Source: Candidatus Nanoarchaeia archaeon (GTDB lineage Archaea; Nanobdellota; Nanobdellia; Woesearchaeales; ARS49). Taken from it: a DNA stretch of 64,000 bases. Shown here piece by piece: positions 2,359 to 47,888 of the stretch. The position numbers were made by a program, and so were the translations under genes. The DNA lies in assembly GCA_041488275.1 (NCBI GenBank), contig JBGPOY010000003.1, positions 78,092 to 142,091 on the forward strand, in the 5' to 3' direction. Position 1 is the stretch's first letter. The number at the start of each line of letters is the position of its first letter. Under the pieces are notes generated by a model. The model worked only from the letters and a program-made list of their open reading frames with translations. It was not told the DNA's origin and did not search any database.

Positions 2359-2430
2359 TGGACGCGCCGGGAGTTGAACCCGGAGCCTCATCCTTGCGAA
2401 GGATGCGTCATGCCATTAGACCACGCGCCC
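2359..2430 (-). tRNA. tRNA-Ala (anticodon CGC)
   Basis: Manual cloverleaf: acceptor GGGCGCG/CGCGTCC with G3:U70, anticodon stem CATCC/GGATG with loop TTCGCAA, T arm CCGGG-TTCAACT-CCCGG. A TATA-like CTTTAAATAC (minus strand) lies about 25-30 nt upstream. Confidence 0.9.
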
Positions 2431-6183: not shown

Positions 6184-7052
6184 CCGTCAACCCCTTGCTC
6201 GATTTGTTCGCGCCAGTGCTGGAGTTCCGCGAGCGCGACGTCTCCCTGTTCTTTCGTCGGGGGCTTGCCGTGCCACTCGTGGTCGTTTTCCATGTAGCTG
6301 ACGCCCTTGCCCGGAATCACGTGAGCGATAATGCACGTCGGCTTTTCGTAGACCGCCTTTGCCTCGTTAAACGCAGCGATGAGATGCTCGTGATTGTGAC
6401 CGTCCACTTCAATGACGTGCCAGCCGAACGCCTCGTACTTGTCGCGAAGGGATTCGAGCGGCATGATGTCTTCGGTGTGACCGTCGATTTGGATGTTGTT
6501 GCGGTCGATGACGGCCGTGAGATTACGGAGCTTGTATTTTGCCGCGAACAGTACGGCTTCCCAAACGTTGCCCGCGTCCTGCTCGCCGTCGCTCATCATG
6601 CAGTACACGCGCCACTTTTTCTTGTCCATCATCGCGGCGAGCGCCATGCCCGCAGACTGGCTCAATCCCGAGCCCAGCGGTCCGGACGTGGTTTCGATGC
6701 CGGGGAGCGCGCCGCGGTGCGGGTGTCCTTGCAAACGGGTGCCGAGCTTGCGCAGCGTGAGGAGTTCTTCGCGCGGTAAATAGCCCGCGTTTGCCATCGT
6801 CGCATACAATACCGGACAGATGTGCCCGTTGCTCAGCACGAACCGGTCGCGGTCGTCCCAGTCAGGATTTGCCGGATCGTGGTTCATCAAGTTGAAGTAC
6901 AGAACCGTGAAGACGTCCGCCATCCCGAGCGGTCCGCCCGAGTGCCCGGAACCCGCGGAAACGAGCGAACGGATAAGGTCCTGACGGATGGTATTGGAAA
7001 GAAGCTTGAGCTGCTTGATATCAGTAACCTTCTGGATACGTGCCATCATCAC
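6180..7052 (-). CDS. tkt: Transketolase, N-terminal (TPP-binding) subunit
   Basis: GSGHSGGPLGMAD, LSNGH and MSDGEQDAGNVWEA motifs. This is the split-gene arrangement. Confidence 0.95.
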   Translation of the reverse strand: MMMARIQKVTDIKQLKLLSNTIRQDLIRSLVSAGSGHSGGPLGMADVFTVLYFNLMNHDPANPDWDDRDRFVLSNGHICPVLYATMANAGYLPREELLTLRKLGTRLQGHPHRGALPGIETTSGPLGSGLSQSAGMALAAMMDKKKWRVYCMMSDGEQDAGNVWEAVLFAAKYKLRNLTAVIDRNNIQIDGHTEDIMPLESLRDKYEAFGWHVIEVDGHNHEHLIAAFNEAKAVYEKPTCIIAHVIPGKGVSYMENDHEWHGKPPTKEQGDVALAELQHWREQIEQGVDG

Positions 7053-7113
7053 CCTCTTTTATGAAGCGAATGTCAGGGATTTTGTTTATAAATGTTGTGA
7101 TTGAGAAAATCGG

Positions 7114-7761
7114 CTAGCGAACGTCCCTTTTCAGCTCTCGGTACGCCTGTTTGATGTTCTTTGCTTTGAACAGCGCGCGTCCCGCGACAAAGAGGTTGGC
7201 GCCTGCCGTGCGGCACGCGCGGGCGGTTCCGGCATGGATGCCGCCGTCCACTTCGATGTCGATGGTTTTACTCCAACTGCGCAGTTGGCGGATTTTGCGC
7301 GATTGGTCGAGATACTTTTGCCCCATGAATCCGGGGTGTACGGTCATCACAAGAACTTGGTCGATGAGTTTGAGGTACGGCTTCACTTTTGCGGCAGGCG
7401 TTGCGGGATTGAGCGCGATGCCGACCTTCAGCCGATGAAAGCGAGCATGTTCAATCAGCCCGAGCGCGTGCGCTTTCGAGTGGATTGATTCGGCGTGGAA
7501 AATCAGCAGCTTTGCCTGCGCGACGCGCGCGACGTCGTGAAGGTACGCTTCTGGATGCTTGACCATCAAGTGAAACTCGAGCGTGAGAGGAGTTTTCGTG
7601 CCGGCGAGAGCCGAAGGCAAAATTGTTTTGTTTTTCGCGAACATGCCGTCAATGATGTCGATTTGCGCTCGCCGCGCGAAGGTTTGCGCGCGTTTCAGCC
7701 GGAGCAGTGCTTCCTTGCGGGACTTTGCAAGAATGGCGGGAATGACTTCAGCGCGCTTCAC
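7114..7761 (-). CDS. rpe: Ribulose-phosphate 3-epimerase
   Basis: IDIIDGMF, HLMV, MTVHPGFMGQ and EVDGGI motifs. I placed the start at the GTG at 7761 (215 aa); the longest ORF extends to 7842 and would overlap rpiB by 95 nt. Confidence 0.8.
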   Translation of the reverse strand: MKRAEVIPAILAKSRKEALLRLKRAQTFARRAQIDIIDGMFAKNKTILPSALAGTKTPLTLEFHLMVKHPEAYLHDVARVAQAKLLIFHAESIHSKAHALGLIEHARFHRLKVGIALNPATPAAKVKPYLKLIDQVLVMTVHPGFMGQKYLDQSRKIRQLRSWSKTIDIEVDGGIHAGTARACRTAGANLFVAGRALFKAKNIKQAYRELKRDVR

Positions 7762-8230
7762 GTTCGTACCGTTCGATTTTTTTGATGCGTCTGACGTGAC
7801 GGGCTTCTCCCGAGAACGGCGTGGCGAGCCACGTGTCGACAATCCGCTTCGCTTGTGCTAGAGACAGCCCGAGCCCGTGCGTTTTCTCAACCGTTTTCCC
7901 GCCCGCGAGGCAGAGGATGTTTGCGTCGTTGTGTTTGCGGCTCAACGCGGCGTTCTTGAGGCTCCACACCGGCACGGCGCGCGCACCTTTGACTTTGTTG
8001 GCGGCGATGCAGATGCCTTCGGCGCTGCCGCACACGAGAATTCCCTGCCCGCCGGTCTTGACGACCAGTTTCGCGACAGGAATCGCGTAATCAGGATAGT
8101 CGTCGCTCTTGACGTACCGCCACGCGCCCAAGTCCTTGACGATGTAGCCGGATTTTTTGAGGTAGTGCTTGAGATGCTCTTTCATCTCAAAACCGGCGTG
8201 GTCGGCGCCGAGATAAAGGACGTCACTCAC
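7748..8230 (-). CDS. rpiB: Ribose-5-phosphate isomerase B (RpiB/LacAB family)
   Basis: LYLGADHAGFEMKEHL and GILVCGSAEGICIAANK motifs. I placed the start at the GTG at 8230; the longest ORF (to 8335) would overlap the glutaredoxin gene. Confidence 0.8.
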   Translation of the reverse strand: MSDVLYLGADHAGFEMKEHLKHYLKKSGYIVKDLGAWRYVKSDDYPDYAIPVAKLVVKTGGQGILVCGSAEGICIAANKVKGARAVPVWSLKNAALSRKHNDANILCLAGGKTVEKTHGLGLSLAQAKRIVDTWLATPFSGEARHVRRIKKIERYEREAR

Positions 8231-8252
8231 AACCGCACGCTCGCGAGAAACA

Positions 8253-8507
8253 TTATGCCGCGGCCTTCTCGAGGCCGAGCGCCTTTTTGAGCGCGCCCTT
8301 GTCAAAGCCGACAATGATTTGTCCGTCGATGTCAATCACGGGAACGCCCATCTGGCCGGACTTTTCAATCATTTCTTCCGCCTTTTTCTCATCGTTGGCG
8401 ACGTCGACTTCGGTGTATTTGACGTTGTTGAGCTTGAAGAAATCCTTGGCCTGCTTGCAGTACGGGCACGTGGGCGTGCTGTAGATGAGGACCTTGTGTT
8501 CTGACAT
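8253..8507 (-). CDS. Glutaredoxin-like protein (CPYC)
   Basis: 84 aa with VLIYSTPTCPYCKQAK and GVPVIDIDGQIIVGFD. Confidence 0.9.
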   Translation of the reverse strand: MSEHKVLIYSTPTCPYCKQAKDFFKLNNVKYTEVDVANDEKKAEEMIEKSGQMGVPVIDIDGQIIVGFDKGALKKALGLEKAAA

Positions 8508-8552
8508 ATCGCACCTCGTTTTGTGTTTTGAGCGCGCGGGGCTTAATAAATC

Positions 8553-9545
8553 TTACAGTTCTCGGGAACGTTGCCATTGCCGAATCACAATCCACGCGAG
8601 CGTTCCCAGAATGACAAAGCCGAGCAGGAAGCCGAGGAACTGCCCCAGTCCCGAACTCAGAAATCCGCCCGCGGTAAGCGAGTCGTTCGCGATGTAGAAG
8701 AAGTCCATGCTCCACGGAATCAGCCGGGGAACGTAGATTTCGAAGAACGTTGTGCCCTGCCACCAAATCATGATGACGCCGATGAAGATGAGGATGATGG
8801 CGCTTGCGATGTTGTACGTGTGCGTGACGATTTCTTTGCCGAAGAGCTTGAACGTGATGACTTTTCCCTGAATCCATTTCTTGTGGGCGAGGTCGAACTT
8901 GTCGCTCAGCATCGCCACCAGCAGGAGCGGAAGCGAAACGCCGAGGGCGTAAAAGACGAGATACGCGGTGCCCGTCAGAACCGTGCCGGCGTTTGCCGCC
9001 AGCAACAGGATGCCGCCGAGGACCGGTCCGACGCACGGCGTCCAGCCGAGCGCGAAGAAAAATCCGAACAGCGTCATCGTGAACGCGCTCTTGGCTTTGT
9101 GGTGGTCGAGCTTGAACTGGAACCACGTGAAGCCCTTGTTGAGCAATGTCATGATGCCGAACGCGATGAAGATGAATCCGGAAACGACCGCGAACGGTTT
9201 TTTGAACTCGTTGATGAATACGCCGAGAATCGCTGCGCTCAATCCGAGCGTGGTGAACGCGAGTATGAGCCCGGCGCAGAAGAACGCGGTCATCAGCACG
9301 GCGCGCTTGCGTTCTTTGAACAGGAAACTGAAGAAGGTGGGCAGCAGGACAAACCCGCACGGGCTGGTGAAGCTGATGATGCCCGCGATGAACGCGATGA
9401 GGAACGTGATGCTCGCCGCGAGCTGTTCCCGATACTGAAGAATCTTGAGGACGCCGGGCGGAAACTGGGACGGCGCGACGGTCTGCGCTGCAACGATGGG
9501 CAGGGCAAGCAGGAACACCAGGAGCAGAACGCCCGTGAATTTCAT
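8553..9545 (-). CDS. ccdA: CcdA/DsbD-family transmembrane thiol-disulfide electron transporter
   Basis: Two membrane-embedded Cys motifs (FTSPCGFVLLP and GWTPCVGPVLG) in a polytopic protein. The start was trimmed to MKFTGVLLL (signal-like). Confidence 0.85.
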   Translation of the reverse strand: MKFTGVLLLVFLLALPIVAAQTVAPSQFPPGVLKILQYREQLAASITFLIAFIAGIISFTSPCGFVLLPTFFSFLFKERKRAVLMTAFFCAGLILAFTTLGLSAAILGVFINEFKKPFAVVSGFIFIAFGIMTLLNKGFTWFQFKLDHHKAKSAFTMTLFGFFFALGWTPCVGPVLGGILLLAANAGTVLTGTAYLVFYALGVSLPLLLVAMLSDKFDLAHKKWIQGKVITFKLFGKEIVTHTYNIASAIILIFIGVIMIWWQGTTFFEIYVPRLIPWSMDFFYIANDSLTAGGFLSSGLGQFLGFLLGFVILGTLAWIVIRQWQRSREL

Positions 9546-10308: not shown

Positions 10309-10989
10309 CTACGGCGATTCGAGCCAGTCGAGGATGTCCTGCCCGACGCCGGGCGAGGAATACAGCGCGACGCCGTGCCCGCCGGAAGGATAGACCTTGA
10401 CCGTGACGCGGGGATTCTGTTTCGCGAGCGCGCGGACGCTTTGCGCAGAGTAGACGTCGTCTTCCGCGGCAAGCAACAGCGTCGTGTTCGGCGCGCCGCC
10501 GATGCCTTGCTCGGGCGTGATGCCCCGAAAATCGAGTCCGGGAGAAATCCCGATGAGCGCCGTGACGTTTTTGTCGGTCGCGGCGTAGTTGATGGCTGCG
10601 TTGGCAGTGAAGCTCGCGCCGACGAGCAGAAGGTGCTTGGTGTCCGCCCCTTGAGCCGCGAGAAAGTCTTTTGCGGCGCGGATATCGAGAGGGAGTTTCG
10701 TGAAATCCGCGTCCGTCATGGTTTGCCAGTTGCCGGAGCTCTGTCCGTGCCCGCGCACGTCAATCGCGATGACGCTGTAGCCCGCGTCCTGCAGCTGCGG
10801 CGCGAACGCGTCGTAATCGTGCCGGTCTCGGCGGAACTGGTGCAGAAGTATCGCGCCGGGCGCTCTGCCGGGAGCGGGATAATAGGTGTACGCAATGGAC
10901 GCTCCGTCGGACGCAGTGAGTTTCGGCATGGTCTGAACAGGCGCGCACGCGGCAAGCACAATGAGCAACGCAAGCGCGTACGCACGCAT
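10309..10989 (-). CDS. Alpha/beta-hydrolase lipoprotein candidate
   Basis: MRAYALALLIVLAAC (lipobox-like LAAC), an HGQSSG-region nucleophile-elbow-like GASFTA, and a C-terminal GGHG. The 459-aa ORF was trimmed; Met at 11022 is an alternative start. Confidence 0.75.
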   Translation of the reverse strand: MRAYALALLIVLAACAPVQTMPKLTASDGASIAYTYYPAPGRAPGAILLHQFRRDRHDYDAFAPQLQDAGYSVIAIDVRGHGQSSGNWQTMTDADFTKLPLDIRAAKDFLAAQGADTKHLLLVGASFTANAAINYAATDKNVTALIGISPGLDFRGITPEQGIGGAPNTTLLLAAEDDVYSAQSVRALAKQNPRVTVKVYPSGGHGVALYSSPGVGQDILDWLESP

Positions 10990-11076
10990 ACGCTCGACAA
11001 GCGGGCGCGGGCTTTTAATCATTTCGCGTGCGAAGCTATAAATACGGGGCGGAGCTTCAACCCTCGAGAGGTACTG

Positions 11077-14078: not shown

Positions 14079-14852
14079 TTACTTGAACAGCTTGTTCCAC
14101 AAAGGCACAGACGCATTTGCAATTGCGAGCGCCACGTTGAAGTCGCCGAAATGCACTACTGCCGAAAACAGCGCCACGAGAACTCCTGCCAAAAGACCGT
14201 ACGCCAGCTGGGGAATTCTGCGCAACGGACTGGTTTTGGGCTCGATGACCATGATGGTTGCGAAGAAGAACAGTGCCGAGCTGTTGAGGAATTCCGCCAG
14301 CACGTCTCCGGGGCTGAGCGCGGCGCGGATTCCGAAATACGCGAGCAGGAAAGGAATGACAATCCACCCGCGCCGCATTCTCGTCACGACAAATATGCCG
14401 CCCAGAATAATGACGAGCAAGCCGATGGGGCCGAGCGCGCCGCCGGACACTCCCCACCACGTGGCGTGCGTGCCAAGCAAATACGTTCCAAGAAGGATGC
14501 CGAAGTTCGCGGGGTTGAAGTAATGCTTGCCGTGCCACGCGATGACGACCTTGGACAGAATCGCGATGAGCGCGACAGCGGCGACGAGCCAGAGCGCGGT
14601 TTGATAACTGAGCACCAGTCCGACGATGCTGCCCGTCACGAGCCCGGAACTCGGGAACGCCCAGCCGCCTTTCTGGAAGCGGATAATCAGCAGGTCAACG
14701 ACGCCTGCGACAAGGATGGCGGTAAAGAAAGGAATGAGTGTCGCGGCATAGCCGTACTGCGCGCCTGCAACGAGCGCGTAGACGAGGAACAGCAGTCCCA
14801 TCGGATGGCGGGTGTCGTTCCACCACCACGCAAACAACTCTTTCGGGCTCAT
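14079..14852 (-). CDS. Polytopic membrane protein (RnfD/NqrB-like, tentative)
   Basis: 257 aa with about 8 TM helices. The GKHYFNPANFG motif is reminiscent of the NqrB/RnfD family; this is a weak family call. Confidence 0.7.
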   Translation of the reverse strand: MSPKELFAWWWNDTRHPMGLLFLVYALVAGAQYGYAATLIPFFTAILVAGVVDLLIIRFQKGGWAFPSSGLVTGSIVGLVLSYQTALWLVAAVALIAILSKVVIAWHGKHYFNPANFGILLGTYLLGTHATWWGVSGGALGPIGLLVIILGGIFVVTRMRRGWIVIPFLLAYFGIRAALSPGDVLAEFLNSSALFFFATIMVIEPKTSPLRRIPQLAYGLLAGVLVALFSAVVHFGDFNVALAIANASVPLWNKLFK

Positions 14853-15298
14853 GCCGAGGCGTTGGGAGTTTGTGCTATTTGAACGTTGCTATCGCTCGCG
14901 TTCTCAGCCGGAAGGACCGTGATGTTGCCTTCCATGTCCTGCTGGTACTGGTCGCGGTACTTGTAGAATCCCGGCTTGGTGAAGATGACGCTCCACGTCG
15001 TGCCCGGCTTGAACGCAGGCGAGGGCGCCTCACCCCACATCCAGATGGATTTGATGAACGGCATCTTGTTGTCCCAGCGCACGCGGTCGCCGACGTGAAC
15101 GGTGATGTTTGCAGGCAGGAACATCCAGTCTTTGATGACGATGTCAACGATGCCGCCGTTCACGATGCCTGTTTCGACGGACGTGTCGGGGTTTTCCTGT
15201 GCAGGAGGCGTCGTCTGCGGCGGCTGCGCAGCGGGAGACGTGCACGCTGCGAGCAGCAGCAGCAGCAGACAGGCGAGCAATGCTGTGATCGTTTTCAT
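14849..15298 (-). CDS. Cupredoxin-like lipoprotein candidate (copper ligands not evident)
   Basis: MKTITALLACLLLLLLAACTSP (lipobox). It has the cupredoxin-like pattern ITVHVGDRVRWDN...GFYKYRDQYQQDMEGNITV, but the Cys/His ligand positions are substituted. Confidence 0.75.
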   Translation of the reverse strand: MKTITALLACLLLLLLAACTSPAAQPPQTTPPAQENPDTSVETGIVNGGIVDIVIKDWMFLPANITVHVGDRVRWDNKMPFIKSIWMWGEAPSPAFKPGTTWSVIFTKPGFYKYRDQYQQDMEGNITVLPAENASDSNVQIAQTPNASA

Positions 15299-16027: not shown

Positions 16028-17308
16028 ATGGCATACATTCACGATACGCTCAAGGAAGAACAGACCGCAGGCGCGAGCCCGGCGGACGTGCGCGCGCACG
16101 CCGAGCGCTGGATTCAGCACGCGGCAAACCCGATGACGTACCAGCTGCCGCACGGCTATTGGTCGCCGGGAACCTGGTGGCCGTCCTCCCAAGAAGTGCT
16201 CAGCAATCTCAACGAGATGAAGAAATTTTATGACGCGTTCCGGCCGTTTCTCGGCGAGGCGCCTTCCCTGATTCTGCAGGAAGCCGAAGCTCGTCTGCAC
16301 ACCGAAGCAGGCGCGATGTTTCGGCTCGCGGACATGGATGAACAGGCGCGCATGAAGCTGCCCGCCCACGAGTTTCCTCCGTACTGTTTCGATTTCAACA
16401 ACGCGGTGCACGAGAGCGACGATTGGGAGTCGCTCAAGCTCGTCACGTTTTTGCCGCAGCGCGTGGGCGGCGGCGGGTTCGCGGACATCTACAAAGCGAC
16501 GGGAAAAGACGGAGCGTCACTCGCGCTCAAGCTGTTCCATCTCGACCACCAGCGCTCGCGGGCGGAACGCGCCGACCGCTCGTGGTATCACGAAGTGCAG
16601 TTCATCATCCGCAATGTTTGGGAGCACCGCGAGGTCGTCCAGCAGGAACCGTTCGCAAAGTACCGGTTCGGCAGCAGCAAAGGAGGCTGGTATCTGCGCG
16701 AATTCGCCGAGGGCAAGCCCGTCGAGAGCATGCTCGAAGCGGGCTGCTCGGTGCGCGACAAGGAACTCGCGGGAAAGATTTTGCTGACGTACGCGGGGAT
16801 GCTCAAGTCACTCCACAGCAAGGGGCTTGCGTTCGCGGACAACGGGTGGAGCAACGTCGTCTTCAGCCCCGAACGCGTCACGGTCGTGGATTATGACCTT
16901 GTGTTCCCGTTCGCGCGCATCAACGAAGTGGAGAAGGACGGCGACCGCGTCTATGCGACTCACGTCCCCCGCCGCGCGGCGCACCGGATGTACGCTTCGC
17001 GCGAACAGTTCATCATGGAGGAACCGCTCACGCCGCACAGCGAGCTCGAAAGTTTCGCGCGGATGCTGGACGTGTTCTGCGTCGGCGGCCCGCTGAAGCC
17101 GTTCAAGTGGGATGAGAGCGACGCGCGCCACTCGACGGAGCTGAAAGAACGCGCCCACGCCAACAAGTCTCGATATCCGCCGAACCGCAAAGGACTTCTG
17201 CCCCGACATCTTCGCGACGTCGTGCCGCGGCTCATCACGTATCCGCGCGATGACTCCATCACGATTGATAACATCATCGACGCAATCAAGGCGGATTACA
17301 AAGTCTGA
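16028..17308 (+). CDS. Protein-kinase-like fold protein (divergent catalytic motifs)
   Basis: Gly-rich loop GGGGFADIYKA plus LALKLF (VAIK-like Lys). The catalytic-loop region is LAFADNGWSNVVF and DYD replaces DFG. The start was trimmed to MAYIHD, with the TATA CATATATAC about 30 nt upstream. Confidence 0.7.
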   Translation: MAYIHDTLKEEQTAGASPADVRAHAERWIQHAANPMTYQLPHGYWSPGTWWPSSQEVLSNLNEMKKFYDAFRPFLGEAPSLILQEAEARLHTEAGAMFRLADMDEQARMKLPAHEFPPYCFDFNNAVHESDDWESLKLVTFLPQRVGGGGFADIYKATGKDGASLALKLFHLDHQRSRAERADRSWYHEVQFIIRNVWEHREVVQQEPFAKYRFGSSKGGWYLREFAEGKPVESMLEAGCSVRDKELAGKILLTYAGMLKSLHSKGLAFADNGWSNVVFSPERVTVVDYDLVFPFARINEVEKDGDRVYATHVPRRAAHRMYASREQFIMEEPLTPHSELESFARMLDVFCVGGPLKPFKWDESDARHSTELKERAHANKSRYPPNRKGLLPRHLRDVVPRLITYPRDDSITIDNIIDAIKADYKV

Positions 17309-18069
17309 GCAGGCTGCGCGCGGCGCAGATAGAACCACAACCCTGTGCCGATGGCAATCTGCAGCAGGCTCAGCCATTGCCCGAGTTCCAGCCCCGCGAG
17401 CAGGACTTCCGGCACCTTGAAGAATTCTGAGACGAACCGGAACGCGCCGTAGAGCATCAGGAACAGCGCGAATATGCTTCCCGTGGGGAGCTGCTTCTTG
17501 CGCTGCGAGTACAGTATCGCGAAGAGCAGGATGTTGTAGAAAATTTCGTACAGCTGCACGGGATGGCGCGGCACTTCGTCGACGTGCGCGTAGATGACCG
17601 CCCACGGTCCGTTCCAGGGCGTACCGACGAGTTCTGAATTGAAAAAGTTGCCCAGTCTTCCGAACGCCTGCGCGAGCGTCGCCGGCACGATGAGTACGTC
17701 GCAAAAATGCAGGAACTCGACCTGATGCCGTTTGCACCAGAACCACACCGCGAGGATGACCCCGATGAGCCCGCCGTAAAAGCTCAGTCCTCCCTCCCAA
17801 ATCGCGATGATTTTGAGCGGATTGGCAAAATAATAGGCGGGCTCGTAGAACAGGACTTCGAACAGGCGCGCGCCGAGCACCATGGAGATGACAATCCAGA
17901 CGAACGCCGTGTCAAAGTGGTCAAGTGTGGTCTTGAACCGCCCCGCCTTGATTTCGCGCCGGCAATACCCATACGCAAACAGCACGCCGAGCGCGTAGAG
18001 AATTCCGTACCACCGAATCGTCAGGAGCCCGACCGAAAGCGCAATAGGATTGAGGTTGTTAACGAACAC
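17296..18069 (-). CDS. lgt: Prolipoprotein diacylglyceryl transferase homologue
   Basis: Lgt signatures: IRWYGILYALG, GRLGNFFNSELVGTPW and HPVQLYE. I placed the start at the GTG at 18069; the longest ORF reaches 18138. Confidence 0.85.
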   Translation of the reverse strand: MFVNNLNPIALSVGLLTIRWYGILYALGVLFAYGYCRREIKAGRFKTTLDHFDTAFVWIVISMVLGARLFEVLFYEPAYYFANPLKIIAIWEGGLSFYGGLIGVILAVWFWCKRHQVEFLHFCDVLIVPATLAQAFGRLGNFFNSELVGTPWNGPWAVIYAHVDEVPRHPVQLYEIFYNILLFAILYSQRKKQLPTGSIFALFLMLYGAFRFVSEFFKVPEVLLAGLELGQWLSLLQIAIGTGLWFYLRRAQPAQTL

Positions 18070-18922
18070 GGTCGTCACCCTGCAGCGAGCGCGAGACAAA
18101 CACGCGGCACGCGAACGCGAGCGGGCCGAGGACGACAATGGTAAGGATAAGTCCCAGCGCTTCGTTCGCAGCGACGAGAGGATTCAGGATAAATCGCGCA
18201 ATCGCGTACACTGCTACAAACGCCACTGCCAGCACGGCAGCGGAGGGAATAAACGCAAGAATCCGCTCAACGCCGAATGCCCGCTTAAAGGCGTTCACGC
18301 CGCGATGCCCCGACAACAGAGCGTACGACAAGAGAACGAAAAAAGCAAAGATGCAGAGGAAAGCAAAGCGCGCCCACGCAGGAACAACCCATCCGGCGAC
18401 ACGCGTGATGGACTGCACAAGTGCCGAGCGCAGGTCGAGGACGTCAACCGCGGATTTCGCGACAACAAAAATCAGTCCCCACCACGCGTTCAGCACGCCG
18501 AATTCCCAGAGATACGTTCCGGCGCCGCGTTTCTCGCCCGCGGTTCCTGCCGCGATGCGCCAGACGCCTCCTTGCACAAGCGCCCACAAGACGTACGCAA
18601 TAAGACCCCACACGACCATCCAGAACACCGTGCCCCAGAAATACGGGCTCGCGTCCGGGGCGAAGAGGAGACTGAATATGCTGGGCGTTTCGTAGCGCTG
18701 GCCCGCCTGCTGCAGCGCCTGCCCGAGAACGCTCGCGAGGTTCGTGAAGTCGATGGTGAGCACGTCGCGTATCGGCTGCGTCAGGAAACCATAGACGAAG
18801 AGAAACGCGACGTCGAGCAGCGTCGAGAGCAGCACGAGCCAAGGCTGTCGGACAATGGCGCGAACAGACGCAAACGCGTTGCGGAGAGCAGTATTCCAGC
18901 GGTTCATTCCATCCTCTTTCAC
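18059..18922 (-). CDS. Hypothetical polytopic membrane protein
   Basis: 287 aa with about 6 TM helices, located immediately upstream of lgt with an overlapping junction. Confidence 0.7.
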   Translation of the reverse strand: MKEDGMNRWNTALRNAFASVRAIVRQPWLVLLSTLLDVAFLFVYGFLTQPIRDVLTIDFTNLASVLGQALQQAGQRYETPSIFSLLFAPDASPYFWGTVFWMVVWGLIAYVLWALVQGGVWRIAAGTAGEKRGAGTYLWEFGVLNAWWGLIFVVAKSAVDVLDLRSALVQSITRVAGWVVPAWARFAFLCIFAFFVLLSYALLSGHRGVNAFKRAFGVERILAFIPSAAVLAVAFVAVYAIARFILNPLVAANEALGLILTIVVLGPLAFACRVFVSRSLQGDDRVR

Positions 18923-18955: not shown

Positions 18956-19450
18956 TTATGACTTGTACTCGATGATGAGCGTGCCTGCCTTGCTGCCGTC
19001 GCGCTCGGTCCACGTGAATTCGCCCTGCGTGAGCGGCGTGAAGTCAATCGTGACGGTGTTGCCTGCGCTGATGACGGTGTTGAGGCTCAGTTCGGAAATG
19101 ATGAACGAGTGGTCTTTGGTGTCGTCGTTGGAAATCGTGAACTTTTCGCGGTCGCCGGGCGTGATGGTCAGAATCGAGGGGTTGTAACCGCTGCGGTCGA
19201 CGCTGAAAACGTAATTGCGCGTGACGCCGGTGGGCTGGATGCCCGGCTGTGAGGCAGGTCCGCCGATGCGTCCGGAAATGCCTTGCGATTCGGGAGCAGG
19301 CGCGGGCGTTTCGGGAGCGGGAGCTCCAACGATAACCTGCTGCTGTCCGGCAGCGGACGACGCAGGAGCGGAAGACGCGGCAGGCGAGGACGGTGACGTG
19401 CACGCGGCAAGCAAAAGCACGGCAAGGATTGCGACAAAGACTCGTTTCAT
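18956..19450 (-). CDS. Lipoprotein candidate with a cupredoxin-like domain (no obvious Cu ligands)
   Basis: MKRVFVAILAVLLLAACTSP (lipobox), a Pro/Ala/Ser linker, then ILTITPGDREKFTISNDD...GEFTWTERDGSKAGTLIIE. Confidence 0.75.
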   Translation of the reverse strand: MKRVFVAILAVLLLAACTSPSSPAASSAPASSAAGQQQVIVGAPAPETPAPAPESQGISGRIGGPASQPGIQPTGVTRNYVFSVDRSGYNPSILTITPGDREKFTISNDDTKDHSFIISELSLNTVISAGNTVTIDFTPLTQGEFTWTERDGSKAGTLIIEYKS

Positions 19451-19824
19451 GGGGTTACCTCTTTGACTTGAACGGCGCCAATCATATCTGAGTGTCCGTC
19501 GCCGCAGAAGACGCTGCAGCGGAACTGGAACAGTCCGACCTTGGTCGCGTCGAACTCGACAATGGATGTGTGCCCGAGCTGCAGCGGGGCGTTGACGTGG
19601 AATTCGGGAATGCTGATGCCGTGCATCACGTCCGCGCTGGTGATGTGCAGTTTGACGTGATCGCCTTTGTTGACCGTGATGAGCGCGGGCTCGAACGCGA
19701 ACTGCTTCGCAGTCATGTCAAATTCCTTCAGCGGACCCTGCACGAACGGCTCGCTCGGAGCGGCGGAAGACGCGCAGCCGGTCAGGAACAGCGCAAGAAC
19801 CGCCACCGGAATCACCCATCGCAT
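19447..19824 (-). CDS. Cupredoxin-domain lipoprotein candidate with a CuA/type-1-like ligand set
   Basis: MRWVIPVAVLALFLTGCASS (lipobox), VMHGISIPEF and FRCSVFCGDGHSDM (C-x3-C-x3-H-x2-M, as in CoxB-type sites). The start was trimmed to Met15, with a TATA about 25 nt upstream. Confidence 0.8.
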   Translation of the reverse strand: MRWVIPVAVLALFLTGCASSAAPSEPFVQGPLKEFDMTAKQFAFEPALITVNKGDHVKLHITSADVMHGISIPEFHVNAPLQLGHTSIVEFDATKVGLFQFRCSVFCGDGHSDMIGAVQVKEVTP

Positions 19825-19911: not shown

Positions 19912-20079
19912 ATGACTGACGGTAAAATCAAGTTCTGGTGTTCGAGCTGCAAGTACAAGTTTCAGCGCAAGGCAAAGCCGAATATGTGCCCGTATTGCAG
20001 CAAGCCGACCGTTGAAGATGACCGTTCGCGCGGCGCAGAAGATTTGCTCCGTGAAGTGAGCGAGATTGGGCGCGAGTAG
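19912..20079 (+). CDS. Small zinc-ribbon protein (55 aa)
   Basis: MTDGKIKFWCSSCKYKF...CPYCSKPT (CxxC-x13-CxxC). TATA ATTTTTATAT lies about 35 nt upstream. It is below the ORF-track length cut-off. Confidence 0.6.
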   Translation: MTDGKIKFWCSSCKYKFQRKAKPNMCPYCSKPTVEDDRSRGAEDLLREVSEIGRE

Positions 20080-20082
20080 CGC

Positions 20083-20466
20083 CTAAATCGCGTCAATAAC
20101 TTTTCTCAGGCGTTTTTCAACGCTTGCGGTGATTGCGTCGAGCTCGTCGTTGCTCAGCAATCCGGCGATTTTGGTGGGTTCCTGCACGGCGACGATGATG
20201 TTCTTTTCCTCTCGGTAAACGGCGAGGTTGAACGGCTGGAACAGCCCTGCGGTTCGGTCGAGGTGCAGCATTTCGTGCGTGACGCGCGGGTCGCACACGC
20301 CCAAGAGCAGGTACTCGGGATGGTCCTGATGGATTTTCTGCTTCAGCAGTTTTGAGAGGTCGGTTTCGGTGATGATGGCGAAGCCGCCCGCGGACAGCTC
20401 CTCGCGGACTTTCTTGACCGCATCAACAAAGGAAAGTTTGACCGAGCGCCGGATGCCATAGACCAT
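20083..20466 (-). CDS. DUF302-domain protein
   Basis: 127 aa: SFVDAVKKVREELSAGGFAIITETDLSKLLK...LLGVCDP fits the DUF302 pattern. The 283-aa ORF was trimmed. Confidence 0.8.
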   Translation of the reverse strand: MVYGIRRSVKLSFVDAVKKVREELSAGGFAIITETDLSKLLKQKIHQDHPEYLLLGVCDPRVTHEMLHLDRTAGLFQPFNLAVYREEKNIIVAVQEPTKIAGLLSNDELDAITASVEKRLRKVIDAI

Positions 20467-20471
20467 GGTGC

Positions 20472-21689
20472 TCACGCCGTCCCGCTTGCGGGCGCGGCGG
20501 TGGAAAGGATTTTGCCGTTGGTCAGGTTCTTGTAGTTCACGCCTTGCAGCAGGTTGACCTTGCGGAAGACGTACGCGCCGTCCTTCTCGACCGTGCCGAC
20601 GCTCGGCCACACGGCGACGAGCGCGGGATACGTCGCGGGGTCGCCGGTCACGATAATCGTCGGAACGAGCGAGAGGTTGTACTGCGCGAGCAGGTTCTTG
20701 CCTTCGGGCGAGCTGACATCGACTACTCGGTCGGTGGAGAACTGCGCTCCGAAATTGGACAGGAAGATTTCTTTGTGAATGCTCGCGTTGTAGCACGTCG
20801 TGCACGAGGCGTCCGTGAGTTCGAGCAGATTGAGCAGTCCGCGGACCTTGCCTGACGTGAGGTCGTAGTATGGCGGCTCGACTTGGCGCAGGACATAGCT
20901 TCCGTCGGGCGCGACGTCGCCGACTTGGTCCCATTGCCCCGCGATGAAGTCGTAGTCTTTCGCTGCAGGGCTCAGCACGACCGCGGGAAGTTTGGTGATG
21001 GAGTACGCGTTAATCAGGCGTTTGCCCTCTTCGCTGGATGCGGAAAACGATTTTTCAGACGTCAGCGCGACGCCTGACTGTTTCAGCTGGTCACCGAGCG
21101 TGCTGAGGTTGCTGCACTGCGGGCAGAGGGCGGGATCTGCGGTGACTTCCTCCAGCGAGAGGAGTCCGCCGACGCTGCCGGACTTGACGTCATAGAACGG
21201 CGCGGGCGATTCAAGCGAGAGCGCGTCGCCGATTTTGAAGAATCCCTGGAGCTGGACTTTGTCGACATCACCCTGCACGATGATGACGGGCAGGCGCGAG
21301 ACGTTGTAATCGTTCATCAATTTCTTGGAGTGCGGGTCGCTCATCGCGAGCGTGAGCGAATCAACGGCGTACTCTTTGCTGGCTGCAAGTTGTTTTGCGA
21401 CGGCCGCGAGGTCGTAGCATTCCTTGCAGTCGGCGGTGATGAGCGTCATCTTGATGCTGGGCTTTACGGGAGTCGCGGAGGCGGGTCCGGCAAGCAATTT
21501 CTGGACGCCGAGGATTTGGACGGCGTTGACAATCAGCACGACGCCGATGAGCACGGCGAGAATCAGGTGGATGGGCGCAAAGGTTTTCTTGGGCGCGTGG
21601 TGAACGGCGTGATGCACCGGATGGGCGGGGTGCAGCGCGTGGTGAGGTTCCTGGTGTTCTGCAGCATGTTCCGGTTTTTTGTCTTCCAC
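20472..21689 (-). CDS. Membrane-anchored protein with three tandem thioredoxin-like CxxC repeats and a His-rich cytoplasmic tail
   Basis: N-terminus EHAAEHQEPHHALHPAHPVHHAVHHAPKK, one TM helix, then three roughly 105-aa repeats with CKEC, CPQC and CTTC. Confidence 0.85.
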   Translation of the reverse strand: MEDKKPEHAAEHQEPHHALHPAHPVHHAVHHAPKKTFAPIHLILAVLIGVVLIVNAVQILGVQKLLAGPASATPVKPSIKMTLITADCKECYDLAAVAKQLAASKEYAVDSLTLAMSDPHSKKLMNDYNVSRLPVIIVQGDVDKVQLQGFFKIGDALSLESPAPFYDVKSGSVGGLLSLEEVTADPALCPQCSNLSTLGDQLKQSGVALTSEKSFSASSEEGKRLINAYSITKLPAVVLSPAAKDYDFIAGQWDQVGDVAPDGSYVLRQVEPPYYDLTSGKVRGLLNLLELTDASCTTCYNASIHKEIFLSNFGAQFSTDRVVDVSSPEGKNLLAQYNLSLVPTIIVTGDPATYPALVAVWPSVGTVEKDGAYVFRKVNLLQGVNYKNLTNGKILSTAAPASGTA

Positions 21690-21702
21690 GGGGTTCCCTC
21701 AG

Positions 21703-22134
21703 TTATAATGAGCAGCCGGTCAATGCGGACAGGCGCTCAAGCGATTGGACGTCCTCATACATCTCCCCGTCAATCACCCACGTCGGGGTTTTCTTGATGG
21801 GCTCGGGCGAGTCGCGATAGTCGCGGTAATCAAGATATTTGAATGACTTGCCGAACATGCCCGCCTGTTCCTGCGTGAAGTGGCACCACTCGATGGCGCC
21901 GTACATGATGGCGTTGTGGTCGTGCAGGCATTGGGCGAACGCGTCGTACTTGCCGGGAAGCGCGAACGCGACGCCGACAATGAGCAAGACGAGCAGAAGA
22001 GCTCCGCCGACGGAGAAATAAACGAACCGCTTGCGCTTCGACTGCGACTGCTGCTTTTCCTGAAGCGCAACATCACGTTCCTGATTGCGCTGCTCCTGCT
22101 TCAGCCGGAGCTTTTCGTGCCGGTCAACGTTCAT
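21703..22134 (-). CDS. Membrane-anchored thioredoxin-like domain protein (VKOR-associated Trx type) with a degenerate CxxC (CHFT)
   Basis: One TM helix, then FAQCL..MYGAIEWCHFTQEQAGMFG...TPTWVIDG...LTGC. Confidence 0.75.
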   Translation of the reverse strand: MNVDRHEKLRLKQEQRNQERDVALQEKQQSQSKRKRFVYFSVGGALLLVLLIVGVAFALPGKYDAFAQCLHDHNAIMYGAIEWCHFTQEQAGMFGKSFKYLDYRDYRDSPEPIKKTPTWVIDGEMYEDVQSLERLSALTGCSL

Positions 22135-22150
22135 AGTTCATCACGCTGGC

Positions 22151-22345
22151 TTAGAGTCCGGTCGTGACGGGCGTTGCCGCGTCCGAGCACGGGTCTTCGA
22201 TGGCGTGCGCGGGAGCGCCGACGCCGCAGCCGCCGCCGACGGGTCCTGACGGAGGCGTGTACGATGCCTGACCGGTCGCGCAGCCGGCAACAAAGAGCAG
22301 ACCGATGATGGTCAGCGCGAGAATCGCGATGGTTGTTGCTTTCAT
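22151..22345 (-). CDS. Small lipoprotein candidate
   Basis: MKATTIAILALTIIGLLFVAGCATG (lipobox VAGC). 64 aa, Gly/Pro-rich, with 2 further Cys. Confidence 0.55.
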   Translation of the reverse strand: MKATTIAILALTIIGLLFVAGCATGQASYTPPSGPVGGGCGVGAPAHAIEDPCSDAATPVTTGL

Positions 22346-22366
22346 TTCATTTCCCCCATTTAGCGC

Positions 22367-22570
22367 TTAACAGCCGCCCACCATATTGGGCAGGTTCTGC
22401 AGGCTTGCCGGCACGCTGCCGCCGCCTGCGCTCGGAGCCGCTCCGCCCGCTGCAACGGCAACGCCGCCCGTGGCGAGCTTCTCCTTAATCGTGTTGACTT
22501 GGAACGCCTGCACCACGCTCAGGAGGAGCAGGATGCCCAGCACGATCGCGATAATCAGGTTCTTGTTCAT
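22367..22570 (-). CDS. Small type-II membrane protein ending in LPNMVGGC
   Basis: MNKNLIIAIVLGILLLLSVVQAFQV...LQNLPNMVGGC*. It is paralogous to the N- and C-termini of the upstream gene product. The 90-aa ORF was trimmed. Confidence 0.6.
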   Translation of the reverse strand: MNKNLIIAIVLGILLLLSVVQAFQVNTIKEKLATGGVAVAAGGAAPSAGGGSVPASLQNLPNMVGGC

Positions 22571-22571
22571 G

Positions 22572-23435
22572 TTAGCATCCTCCGACCATATCGGGCAGGC
22601 TTCCGATGTCCGCCGTCTTGCCCGACTGCAGTTTTGCAAGCAGTTGGGCGTCGTTCAGTTTCGCAGGGTCGAGGTCGAGCCCGTTTTGCACGAGCGCGAC
22701 GCCCTTTTGAACCATGTTCTTGGGATAAAAGAGCGACTTCCAGCGCGTGAGGTCCCAGTAAATCTGGTCGTCAGTCCACGTGGTGGGGTGCGTCTTGATA
22801 ATGTACTTGGTGAGCCCGCGGAACGCCGCGGAGTGGGCGCAACCGCACAAGTCGCGGCCTTGGTTGTCCGTGACGGCAGGTGCGCTGCAGCAGAACTCGC
22901 AGGAAATTTTGGTCGTGATGCCGACGTAGCGCTTAAACTCGTCGGGGGTAAGCGTCTTGGTTGGGATGGCTTGGTCGAGTCGCGCAAGCGTTTGGAGACC
23001 GGGGACGGGGTTGTCGAACGAGACGCCGAGCTCCTTGCCATAATCCTTCGGTGTTCCGGTCGGAATGAGCGCCTTGATGACGCTGTTGACGACGTCGCCC
23101 GATGCATCGAGCTTGATGGTACCCGAGGTTTGGCCTGCGGTCGGTCCCGAAGGCGCGAGCGCGCTGCCGCCCGAGACGAGCAGCCCCGAGACTTGCGTAA
23201 TCTGGAATTGGTTGAAGAGAATCATCAAAGAAACGAGCGCGATAAGCAGGAACGAGAGTTTTTCGCCGGCGCTTACGGGTGTGTGCGCGTCGTGAGGCGC
23301 GTGCACTTCGTGAGATGCAGGGTGCGCAACCGGAACCGCGAGAGGTTTTGATTCGACCTTGGGTTCCGCTTTGACTGCCTTTTCTTTTTTTGGTTCTGCC
23401 ACAGGATGCTCCTGCGCTCCCCCGATTTTCACCAT
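22572..23435 (-). CDS. Membrane-anchored Cys-motif protein (CxxCC...CGCxH) with a His-rich tail, ending in LPDMVGGC
   Basis: His-rich N-terminus (HPASHEVHAPHDAHTP), one TM helix, the motif KISCEFCCSAPAVTDNQGRDLCGCAHS, and the C-terminus GSLPDMVGGC*. A TATA lies about 25 nt upstream of the ATG. Confidence 0.8.
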   Translation of the reverse strand: MVKIGGAQEHPVAEPKKEKAVKAEPKVESKPLAVPVAHPASHEVHAPHDAHTPVSAGEKLSFLLIALVSLMILFNQFQITQVSGLLVSGGSALAPSGPTAGQTSGTIKLDASGDVVNSVIKALIPTGTPKDYGKELGVSFDNPVPGLQTLARLDQAIPTKTLTPDEFKRYVGITTKISCEFCCSAPAVTDNQGRDLCGCAHSAAFRGLTKYIIKTHPTTWTDDQIYWDLTRWKSLFYPKNMVQKGVALVQNGLDLDPAKLNDAQLLAKLQSGKTADIGSLPDMVGGC

Positions 23436-23585: not shown

Positions 23586-23942
23586 ATGAAAGAAGTGATG
23601 GGGCGGTTTGATGAACTGCTGAGCCCGCTCGAAGCCGACGTTCTTCGCGTCCTCTGGCCCGACAAAAAAATGAAAGTGCGCCAGATGTACGACCTGCTGA
23701 AGCACAAGCGCAAGGTCGCGCTCAGCTCCGTGGCCGTGATTCTCGACCGATTGCACGCGCGCGGAATTGTCAACCGCACCGTCGAGACCGCGCGAGGAGG
23801 AATGCGCTACACGTACTTCCCGCGGCAGGACAAAAAACAGTTCGAACAAAACGTTGTCGAAACCGCCGTCAACAAACTGATTGACGCGTTCGGTCCGACC
23901 GCGGTCAGTTATTTCAACGAGCGCTTTGGGAGGAAGAAGTGA
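23586..23942 (+). CDS. BlaI/MecI/CopY-family winged-helix repressor
   Basis: LSPLEADVLRVLW...VALSSVAVILDRLHARGIVNR...YTYFP. There is no C-terminal CopY-type Cys motif. Confidence 0.9.
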   Translation: MKEVMGRFDELLSPLEADVLRVLWPDKKMKVRQMYDLLKHKRKVALSSVAVILDRLHARGIVNRTVETARGGMRYTYFPRQDKKQFEQNVVETAVNKLIDAFGPTAVSYFNERFGRKK

Positions 23943-24691
23943 GCATTCTCCAAGTGATGCTGCTGACCCTCCTCAATCCGACGTATCTGACGATTTCCGC
24001 CGGCGCGGTGTTGCTTGCGCTGCTCGTGCTTGCCGCCTCGAGAAACGCGCAACTCACGGTTGCCGCCCGCGTGTTTCTGATTTACGTCCACATCGCATTG
24101 CTGCTCGTGCCGATTGCCGCGTTATCGTACACGAGCGGATGCGCGTTGCCCGGCGTGCAGTGTACGACGCGCACGTTATTGTTTGCGCTGCCGCTCATCC
24201 TCGCGGGCATCATCACGACGACGGGCGTTGCGGGTTATTATTTACTCCCGCGTCTCTACCGCAGAAAGCTCGGCGCCCGACCGATGCACGACGCGCGCAT
24301 GCAGACGATGGTTGACCGCGTTGCGAAGAAATTCGGCATTCTCCCTCCTGCGATGTTCGCGCTCGACACCGCGGCGCCGATGGCGTTCAGCTTCTCATCG
24401 TTCAAGCCCGCGATTTTCGTCTCGATTGGCATGCTGGACATTCTCTCGCGCAAGGAACTCGAAGCGGTTGTTTTGCACGAACTCGGACATCTCTGCCAGC
24501 GTTCTTCACTGTTGAAGTTCACGAGCCAGTTGGTGCGCTTTGTCAGCCCCGTCGCGGCGTTCGCGACACGCCCGCACGACATCGACGCGGAAGAACGCGC
24601 GGCTGACGCGTTCGCGATACGCCTGCAGAAAACGTCCTTGCACGTGGGCCGTGCGCGCAGGAACGTCGAAGCATTCTTTCAATCAGCATGA
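23939..24691 (+). CDS. BlaR1-like M56-family membrane metalloprotease (no extracellular sensor domain)
   Basis: About 4 TM helices and the HExxH motif VLHELGHL. Overlaps the repressor gene by 4 nt. Confidence 0.85.
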   Translation: MSILQVMLLTLLNPTYLTISAGAVLLALLVLAASRNAQLTVAARVFLIYVHIALLLVPIAALSYTSGCALPGVQCTTRTLLFALPLILAGIITTTGVAGYYLLPRLYRRKLGARPMHDARMQTMVDRVAKKFGILPPAMFALDTAAPMAFSFSSFKPAIFVSIGMLDILSRKELEAVVLHELGHLCQRSSLLKFTSQLVRFVSPVAAFATRPHDIDAEERAADAFAIRLQKTSLHVGRARRNVEAFFQSA

Positions 24692-47513: not shown

Positions 47514-47888
47514 ATGAAAAAAGGAGGGCAGGTCTCGGTCGAAGCGCTGTTCTCTCTCGGATTTATCGCGCTGATGTTCGGCACGATGCTGCTGTACTCG
47601 TACGAACGCCAGCAAGACCTTCGCACGGCGCGCACGGCAGCCGTGCGGCTGAACGACTGCCTCTCGGTCACGACCGCAATCATCGGACTGCTCGTAAATA
47701 GAGGCGGCACGGCGAACGTCACCGTGACGAACCGCATCGCCGTCAAGTCCGCTGCGCAGGTCGTCGAAGCGGGCGACGATGTTCCGTGCCGGCTTGCTAC
47801 GTCCGCAGTCACGAGCGGCGTCTTTGAGCCGGGCAGGCTTGTCTTCACGTCGCTTCCGAACGGCACCGTCGAGGTGTCGCATGCGTAA
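47514..47888 (+). CDS. Prepilin-like protein (class III signal peptide)
   Basis: MKKGGQVSVEALFSLGFIALMFGTMLLY. Confidence 0.7.
   Translation: MKKGGQVSVEALFSLGFIALMFGTMLLYSYERQQDLRTARTAAVRLNDCLSVTTAIIGLLVNRGGTANVTVTNRIAVKSAAQVVEAGDDVPCRLATSAVTSGVFEPGRLVFTSLPNGTVEVSHA

Follow-up and report, generated by a model that had tools for sequence, protein, structure and literature searches.

A full-length prolipoprotein diacylglyceryl transferase (Lgt) homologue on a Woesearchaeales chromosome, encoded beside candidate lipoprotein substrates

Whether an archaeon can possess the bacterial enzyme of the first lipoprotein lipidation step, prolipoprotein diacylglyceryl transferase (Lgt), is the question raised by a stretch of DNA from Candidatus Nanoarchaeia archaeon (GTDB lineage Archaea; Nanobdellota; Nanobdellia; Woesearchaeales; ARS49). 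The stretch comprises 64,000 nt of contig JBGPOY010000003.1 (GenBank assembly GCA_041488275.1, positions 78,092 to 142,091 of the forward strand) and is called the window throughout; coordinates are counted from its first letter unless a locus handle (L with a number) is given. Archaea have been stated to lack an Lgt homologue (FEMS Microbiol Rev 2018; Nat Commun 2025; mBio 2026), and the search for Lgt in the last of these covered RefSeq genomes as of 2021. An earlier note on this DNA had described the Lgt pathway as reported absent from cultivated archaea; the absence is indeed reported, but the literature extends it to all archaea. No paper linking Lgt or the signal peptidase Lsp to DPANN archaea was found in the literature searched, and the NCBI and JGI pipelines already name these archaeal proteins Lgt. 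The archaeal Lgt is a genuine exception that has gone unreported: annotation pipelines know the gene, the field does not. We propose, with a probability of roughly 0.77, that it is a functional prolipoprotein (di-radyl)glyceryl transferase, probably an ancient bacterial acquisition by an ancestor of the Woesearchaeota/Nanoarchaeota-type DPANN archaea that would since have been inherited chromosomally.

The gene in question is the following:

17296..18069, minus strand: lgt, prolipoprotein diacylglyceryl transferase homologue, 257 aa, final gene of its operon

Two start codons are candidates, a GTG at 18069 (257 aa, with GGTGA ahead of it; the NCBI call) and a GTG at 18078 (260 aa; the JGI call). 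The product of this open reading frame (ORF) matches PF01790 with 249.1 bits (gathering cutoff 24.9; E=5e-74) over 240 of 240 profile positions and TIGR00544 with 190.4 bits against a cutoff of 118.9, and it matches E. coli Lgt (5azb) by sequence at E=5e-36. Its AlphaFold2 model, built with 55 homologues (pLDDT 94.6, pTM 0.89), has 5azb as the sole significant Foldseek match in the PDB (E=2.7e-16, probability 1.00, TMq 0.85). The motifs IRWYGILYALG, GRLGNFFNSELVGTPW and HPVQLYE, which the earlier note had listed, are all found in the translation, and the signature GRLGNFxNxELxG is present and reads GRLGNFFNSELVG. The note's claim of an Lgt homologue in an archaeal context is borne out by this full-length family match, by the fold match and by the archaeal markers described below.

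Residues were checked in an alignment of the window Lgt with E. coli Lgt and 119 homologues and are given in E. coli numbering. Y26, R73, G98, G99, G104, D129, G142, R143, G145, N146, E151, G154, H196, F211, Y235, R239 and E243 are unchanged; the signature motif, Y26, Y235, R239 and E243 are shared with nearly all of the 120 homologues, and accepted states occupy 18 of the 19 conserved positions checked. Across 25 archaeal Lgt sequences at 47-70% identity, 38 columns are invariant, and these include all catalysis residues. R246 is replaced by K, as throughout the clade of the window Lgt, and H103, which is essential in E. coli, by Y (YGGL); all 120 other aligned sequences have H at this position, and HGGL is found in 21/21 closest relatives. 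Elsewhere in the family position 103 holds Y in Firmicutes, W in Actinobacteria and F in others, and K replaces R246 in several Lgts (PMC13251419). Since both states are natural in other Lgts, neither disqualifies the window protein, and the catalytic residues singled out in the earlier note are therefore either kept (R143, R239) or in a state known from Firmicutes (H103). As far as sequence comparison can tell, the ORF is a full-length Lgt with its catalytic residues intact, on an archaeal chromosome.

With bacterial Lgt (E. coli Lgt, PDB 5AZB/5AZC) the window protein shares family, fold, signature and the length class of the short bacterial Lgts, and canonical [LVI][ASTVI][GAS]C lipobox substrates are encoded next to its gene. 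It differs in the archaeal host, in H103Y and R246K, in the coupled clade-specific membrane protein encoded upstream, and in that no Lsp is found nearby. The periplasmic head comprises about 20 residues compared with 42 in E. coli, and the nearest proteobacterial sequences are equally short.

That the host is an archaeon was assessed from markers on the window contig, scored in bits against curated NCBIfam cutoffs:

thermosome_arch (TIGR02339): 773, cutoff 671
gltX_arch, archaeal-type glutamyl-tRNA synthetase (GluRS): 528, cutoff 402
Spt5: 146, cutoff 70
archaeal ribosomal protein L11: 203, cutoff 162
archaeal histone: 62, cutoff 50
secE_euk_arch, Sec61γ-type SecE: 68, cutoff 36

Further window genes encode KaiC-like ATPases, a FlaI-like ATPase and pilin-like proteins with class III signal peptides. 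The archaeal GluRS, thermosome and Spt5/L11 genes lie about 7-20 kb away from lgt on the one contig, and the lgt locus is 100% identical in four assemblies: JGI (103 kb), NCBI (116 + 148.8 kb) and Logan contigs. Codon usage of lgt is ameliorated and in line with host housekeeping genes, the GC fractions at the three codon positions being 0.59/0.37/0.78 for lgt, 0.62/0.38/0.73 for the thermosome and 0.59/0.35/0.73 for GluRS. Among GTDB species representatives, the relatives of the GluRS are all archaeal except for one remote bacterial match at 29%; the closest, at 80%, is from a metagenome-assembled genome (MAG) mislabelled 'Binatia', followed at 69% each by those of a Woesearchaeota MAG and a 969-kb contig.

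A mis-assembled or mis-binned bacterial fragment within an archaeal contig would explain the locus without an archaeal Lgt, and contamination is indeed frequent among DPANN MAGs, while the public labels of the relatives disagree ('Binatia bacterium', 'uncultured Methanosarcinales archaeon'). This explanation is nevertheless extremely improbable. Four assemblies recovered lgt near archaeal GluRS, thermosome and Spt5/L11 genes, the same neighbours surround lgt in five other genomes, lgt is found on contigs of 712-969 kb, and at one further locus (L110) it overlaps a gene for the lipoprotein-modifying enzyme Lit that in turn overlaps an archaeal/eukaryal-type FEN1 gene. The 'Binatia' MAG has its archaeal GluRS (80% identity) on a separate contig, so that the label is wrong and not the contig, and at least one 'Methanosarcinales'-labelled contig is named Nanoarchaeota in NCBI. 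A chimeric or contaminant origin of the lgt locus is effectively excluded. The bacterial or chimeric contig that the earlier note had allowed for is contradicted by six archaeal markers, four agreeing assemblies, host-like GC at third codon positions (GC3) and conserved synteny. A mobile element or plasmid was also considered as the origin of the cluster and rejected; the same housekeeping flanks (FBA, PfkB and the BlaI/M48 pair) are present in the window and in L013.

As to labels in general, the 'Candidatus Binatia bacterium' MAG SMAG_U15746 (DATILO01; L001/L016/L029) holds both the archaeal GluRS and the Lgt cluster, and its label is wrong. Wrong or placeholder organism labels also apply to L002, L018, L033 and many GTDB-representative Lgt loci, and many ENA MAGs named 'uncultured Methanosarcinales archaeon' are Woesearchaeota/Nanoarchaeota-like.

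On its upstream side lgt is preceded by genes whose arrangement bears on its function:

18059..18907, minus strand: partner of lgt, an uncharacterised polytopic membrane protein of 282 aa, directly upstream of lgt
18956..19450, minus strand: cupredoxin (plastocyanin-like) lipoprotein precursor, lipobox LAAC/T, PF13473 and LPAM_1 lipid attachment site; signal peptide MKRVFVAILAVLLLAAC, then T after the cleavage mark
19447..19824, minus strand: COX2-like cupredoxin lipoprotein precursor, lipobox LTGC/A, PF00116 and PF13473, 4-nt overlap with the next gene; signal peptide MRWVIPVAVLALFLTGC, then A after the cleavage mark
20083..23435, minus strand: upstream part of a conserved cluster, encoding a 287-aa protein, a 67-aa secreted/anchored protein, a 64-aa lipoprotein, a 143-aa membrane protein, a 405-aa thioredoxin-like membrane-anchored protein and a DUF302 protein; gene order identical in L013, L014 and L002, partly kept in L015
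22151..22345, minus strand: the 64-aa Cys-rich lipoprotein precursor of that cluster, lipobox VAGC/A
23586-23942, plus strand: BlaI/CopY-like repressor, PF03965; best NCBIfam match CopY/TcrY, under cutoff
23939-24691, plus strand: M48/M56 membrane peptidase, PF01435 and PF05569

The operon thus reads, along the minus strand, COX2-like cupredoxin, cupredoxin, 282-aa membrane protein and lgt. The two cupredoxin genes overlap by 4 nt (19447/19450), and the stop of the partner gene falls 11-20 nt inside the lgt start (18059/18069); gene overlap of this kind shows lgt to be co-transcribed with the two cupredoxin genes and the membrane protein gene, as read from the sequence. The gene order around lgt recurs in L013 (a Woesearchaeota MAG; Lgt identity 68%), L014 (54%), L002 (61%) and L001 (70%), and it is partly kept in L015 (a Nanoarchaeota MAG, 49%). 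The repressor and peptidase pair is divergent from the cluster and stays beside it in L013 and L014. In L013 an inserted gene for a copper P-type ATPase with a heavy-metal-binding domain (6968-9178) separates the cupredoxin genes from the partner gene, and the thiol-redox and copper genes around the cluster include DsbD/CcdA, glutaredoxin, peroxiredoxins and a third cupredoxin.

With its CopY/BlaI-like repressor and M48/M56 peptidase, three cupredoxins and DUF302, the lgt cluster appears to be copper-related. Its 67-aa (22367-22570, minus strand) and 287-aa (22572-23435, minus strand) proteins end in a common C-terminal motif, LP(N/D)MVGGC followed by the stop, which is also conserved in L014 and might serve for C-terminal processing, metal binding or anchoring. 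A 55-aa zinc-ribbon protein with two CxxC motifs is encoded inside the cluster (19912-20079, plus strand), and a gene of the same size occupies the same position in L013 and L015.

The substrates expected of an Lgt were sought with a strict lipobox rule (n-region, h-region and [LVI][ASTVI][GAS]C). Beyond the three lipobox genes already listed, two more satisfy it:

14849..15298, minus strand: cupredoxin-like lipoprotein precursor, lipobox LAAC/T, weak PF13473 match
10309..11022 (alternative start 10989), minus strand: alpha/beta-hydrolase lipoprotein precursor, lipobox LAAC/A, PF12146 and PF00561

Five of 79 window genes thus carry a strict lipobox, all at most 12 kb from lgt and two of them inside the lgt operon. 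In 2000 trials with shuffled N-termini the count averaged 0.41 and never exceeded 3, and internal windows predict 0.09. The lipobox cysteine is kept in 14/14 orthologs from four families, in which signal peptide and mature N-terminus have diverged down to 30-56% identity: in 4/4 orthologs of the cupredoxin at 18956..19450 (identity 31-48%), in 3/3 full-length orthologs of the COX2-like cupredoxin (LVGC), in 4/4 orthologs of the 64-aa protein (VTGC, VTGC, VSGC, IAGC), among them that of L015, whose Lgt is at 49%, and in 3/3 orthologs of the cupredoxin-like protein at 14849..15298 (LTAC, LVAC, LTAC). For the hydrolase no ortholog was found within the relatives' fetched lgt loci. The five lipoboxes reported in the earlier note are accordingly all genuine N-terminal signal peptide and lipobox sequences at the positions it gave, and a frequency at background, which would have spoken against its reading, was not observed (5 of 79 genes compared with 0.1-0.4 expected, with conservation in orthologs). 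In 80 GTDB loci scanned within 4 kb on either side of lgt, the archaeal-labelled DNA (380 kb) yielded 31 lipobox ORFs and the bacterial DNA (244 kb) 3, densities of 0.082 versus 0.012 per kb that differ roughly sevenfold. Beside archaeal lgt these ORFs are often directly downstream and on the same strand.

A lipobox-modifying system has already been described for archaea in Haloferax volcanii, namely AliA/AliB (arCOG02177/02178; PMC12462473). It resembles the one envisaged here in the would-be thioether lipidation of the lipobox cysteine on Sec/Tat-exported proteins and in that lipoprotein genes lie near the enzyme gene, in Haloferax as at the window lgt. The difference is that AliA reaches 29% in HHpred against PF01790 (PMC12462473), whereas the window ORF is a canonical PF01790 member; by that match and by the published description of AliA, the window ORF stands apart from arCOG02177/02178. 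It could be supposed that a native Ali system lipidates the lipobox proteins, with Lgt retained for another job, such as lipid remodelling or the handling of host molecules, or decaying as a relic. AliA is present in many DPANN archaea, no Lsp was seen in the window, and the H103Y substitution of the window copy would suit a relic. We regard this as unlikely, given that the ORF is full-length with ameliorated codon usage, that every catalysis residue falls among the invariant columns, that across the clade lgt shares its operon with lipobox protein genes, at the lipobox density just described, and that Lit, a dedicated lipoprotein-modifying enzyme, is encoded beside lgt in other lineages.

The 282-aa partner protein has no Pfam or NCBIfam match, and a word-indexed homology search with it returned the query itself only. 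An exhaustive search of a library of 1.84 billion proteins gave a family of about 115 representatives. The AlphaFold2 model is all-helical (pLDDT 94.6) and has no fold match in the PDB better than E=0.4 by Foldseek; conserved positions are D32, F35, G40, Y108, W116, F136, W143, S194, Y195 and R268. All 6 close archaeal loci have a member of this family immediately upstream of lgt, and one occurs in 20 of 50 archaeal GTDB lgt loci, 19 times directly upstream and once (L093) downstream, as opposed to 0 of 33 bacterial lgt loci. One distant member (P0141) is on a 3-kb contig where no lgt is visible. By hhalign the partner is unrelated to Lgt (probability 0.4%) and to Lit. A role as an Lsp or Lit analogue was rejected, with no detectable similarity and no conserved Asp or His pair. 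The partner protein, conserved upstream of lgt, probably works with Lgt, and its family is a new one among membrane proteins, with a genetic link to Lgt in archaea alone.

How far Lgt extends among archaea was assessed by scanning GTDB species representatives with a profile of the window's Lgt clade, the figures given here referring to the best 80 loci. Fifty of these carry archaeal labels (Woesearchaeota, Nanoarchaeota, Nanoarchaeia, 'archaeon' and, in ENA, 'uncultured Methanosarcinales') and 30 are bacterial (Syntrophobacteraceae and other Deltaproteobacteria, Tolumonas, Bdellovibrionales and others). Several of the archaeal-labelled loci are on contigs of 100-969 kb, the largest being CAZJXP010000001.1 (969 kb), JABIAG010000001.1 (762 kb) and JACJVV010000001.1 (712 kb), and the 969-kb contig with Lgt also has an archaeal GluRS. 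Identity to the window Lgt is 60-70% for the closest sequences, some of them labelled Woesearchaeota, 45-49% for Nanoarchaeota/Nanoarchaeia and about 40-45% for bacteria. At a more distant locus (L028, 46%) lgt lies among S-layer (PF05124) and TrmB genes and is followed by DsbA-like and cupredoxin genes.

In a BLOSUM62 neighbour-joining tree, 53 archaeal Lgt sequences form one pure clade, with the carriers of the partner gene as a sub-clade within it. A single ancient transfer of lgt into archaea is the simplest reading of these sequences, not a demonstrated one, and because the monophyly of archaeal Lgt receives a bootstrap of only 18% under Kimura distances, we claim neither monophyly nor a donor. 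The Lgt sequences of Tolumonas (L066, L067, L072, L091) and Desulfomicrobium (L086) are nested in or beside the archaeal clade in the distance trees, and this group may reflect a secondary transfer or hint at the donor. As a gammaproteobacterium, Tolumonas presumably has an E. coli-type Lgt as well. In some Firmicutes (Peptoniphilaceae, Bacillota MAGs) lit is directly followed by lgt (L122 8001-9231; L127 8001-9417); the Lgt of these lit-lgt Firmicutes is more distant from the archaeal clade than proteobacterial Lgt, and Firmicutes with such pairs were rejected as donor of the archaeal lgt, their Lgt scoring below that of Proteobacteria.

Beyond Lgt, the later enzymes of the pathway were sought. 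An Lsp profile, made from the LspA sequences of E. coli, P. aeruginosa and S. aureus and validated against PDB LspA entries, had no match better than E=0.04 in the window or the first 26 loci, and the other 160 loci gave none at E ≤ 1e-3, the fetched DNA containing no positive control in either case. The earlier note had likewise seen no Lsp homologue in the window. Neither Lit (jackhmmer with a Lit homologue) was found in the window nor a CN_hydrolase or Lit family member among Pfam calls over about 74 kb of the contig. At least five archaeal-labelled genomes of the Lgt clade, however, have a Lit-family gene next to lgt:

L087 3337-4014: Lit, directly upstream of lgt
L080 3352-4017: Lit, directly upstream of lgt
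L055 3338-3997: Lit, directly upstream of lgt
L075 1873-2679: Lit, 1.3 kb upstream of lgt
L028 12921-13541: Lit, about 2 kb downstream of lgt
L110 7117-9411: FEN1 (XPG-type, archaeal/eukaryal), Lit and Lgt, overlapping on one strand

Five archaeal-context Lit homologues all match PF07314 (best E 3.7e-31), and their profile finds the B. cereus Lit structure 7B0O at E=1e-20. Residues H85, V89, F149, H153, F157 and W162 are invariant with the same spacing, so that the H85/H153 dyad is intact, and a score of 43 on the NCBIfam Lit equivalog (cutoff 400) marks the archaeal-context homologues as divergent members. They share with the Lit of Firmicutes (PF07314, 7B0O) this dyad and the lit-lgt adjacency seen in some Firmicutes; the window differs in having no Lit, an unrelated 282-aa partner occupying that slot in its sub-clade. 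Lit moves the ester-linked sn-2 acyl chain of diacylglyceryl-cysteine to the free α-amino group (PMC8275575), and its presence beside lgt therefore implies ester-linked anchors and a signal-peptidase-II-like cleavage in the Lit-bearing lineages.

From these elements a mechanism can be outlined. After Sec export, Lgt would bind a phosphatidylglycerol-type membrane lipid through the arginines equivalent to R143 and R239 and would transfer the glyceryl moiety of this lipid to the thiol of Cys+1. The putative substrates are the cupredoxins, the 64-aa protein, the hydrolase and other lipobox proteins, which the resulting thioether would anchor to the outer face of the membrane. As regards the lipid donor, we lean slightly towards ester-linked bacterial-type phosphatidylglycerol obtained from partner organisms rather than archaetidylglycerol, because in sister archaeal lineages lgt is accompanied by an intact Lit, which can act on ester-linked acyl chains only. 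Woesearchaeota have been reported to contain murein-degrading proteins, suggesting bacterial partners (PMC8204110). In its extended form, which we put forward tentatively, surface proteins of these DPANN archaea would be carried on ester-linked diacylglycerol, placed by Lgt and remodelled by Lit in some lineages, and the membranes would contain bacterial-type phospholipids, presumably from bacterial partners.

In the version of the earlier note, Lgt would act on ether lipids and transfer an archaeol group (diphytanyl- or digeranylgeranyl-glyceryl) from archaetidylglycerol, so that the same thioether-archaeol anchor would be made as by AliA/AliB in Haloferax, and the clade-specific partner might adapt a bacterial enzyme to ether lipids based on glycerol-1-phosphate (G1P). 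The host is an archaeon, thioether-linked archaeol is found on Haloferax lipoproteins (PMC12462473), and the patchy distribution of AliA among DPANN archaea ('with some gaps') would allow for a replacement. Translational coupling of lgt to the archaea-specific partner is seen in 19/50 archaeal and 0/30 bacterial loci, and about 28 positions are fixed differently between the window Lgt clade and the bacterial Lgt sequences compared. The lipid-headgroup residues, on the other hand, are all as in bacterial Lgt. Use of ether lipids, or of the opposite glycerol stereochemistry, by an Lgt has to our knowledge never been shown, related archaeal lineages have, together with lgt, a catalytically intact Lit that needs an ester-linked sn-2 acyl chain, and Woesearchaeota reportedly cannot make archaeal lipids and have the murein-degrading proteins that suggest bacterial partners. 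We consider the ether version possible but rather doubtful.

Several points weigh against a functional, anciently acquired archaeal Lgt and against the mechanism outlined for it. The whole case is built on metagenome-assembled sequence, and the window copy has Y in place of the histidine that is essential in E. coli. Under Kimura neighbour-joining the archaeal Lgt sequences reach the bootstrap given above, and the Tolumonas/Desulfomicrobium group usually intrudes among them. No Lsp emerged from profile and single-sequence searches of about 190 fetched lgt loci, nor PF01252 from Pfam calls over the same 74 kb of contig, which include 10 kb beyond the left end of the window, and the evidence from Lit stems from sub-lineages other than that of the window genome. 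Cultured DPANN archaea contain host-derived archaeal ether lipids, and we know of no case in which Lgt uses such lipids. Furthermore, Woesearchaeota are reported to be without GGGP and DGGGP synthases (PMC8421398), which bears on the membrane lipids open to Lgt.

Other parts of the window contain features apart from the lgt locus:

2261-2336 and 2359-2430, minus strand: tandem tRNA-Ala genes (GGC and CGC anticodons) with a gap of 22 nt, beside the archaeal histone gene
34040-34651, plus strand: SecE/Sec61γ, 203 aa, the conserved domain confined to residues 146-200 behind a long Q/P/H-rich N-terminus
37082-37864, plus strand: ribosomal protein L11, 260 aa, with about 100 additional C-terminal residues
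38072-38978 (minus strand), 47514-48357 (plus strand) and 50547-53863 (plus strand): type IV pilus/archaellum-like locus
57849-63998, plus strand, running past the window end: giant secreted protein, >2050 aa; type I signal peptide; very high GC3 (0.85)

The pilus-like locus encodes small proteins with class III signal peptides (MKKGQ/MKRGQ/MRKGQ...), a FlaI-like ATPase under the equivalog cutoff, two T2SSF membrane proteins and several KaiC/ArlH-like ATPases. The FtsZ of the window has a Q/P-rich N-terminal extension, and giant ORFs comparable to that at the window end are found near lgt in L014 (1886 aa) and L015 (>2944 aa).

The search that led to AliA/AliB started from the premise that Lgt is absent from archaea. 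For a large uncultivated group of DPANN archaea this premise does not hold: at least 50 species-level genomes have Lgt, and in that group the gene has long been kept in operons with its presumed substrates. Several questions become testable: whether Lgt can use ether lipids, what the Woesearchaeal membrane is made of, whether Lgt fills the AliA gaps of DPANN and how the signal peptides are cleaved. The archaea-specific partner protein and the pairing with Lit are the leads that would raise the importance of the finding. If ester-linked anchors are indeed used, this would be a natural breach of the 'lipid divide' between archaea and bacteria, and it would explain the patchy occurrence of AliA in DPANN archaea.

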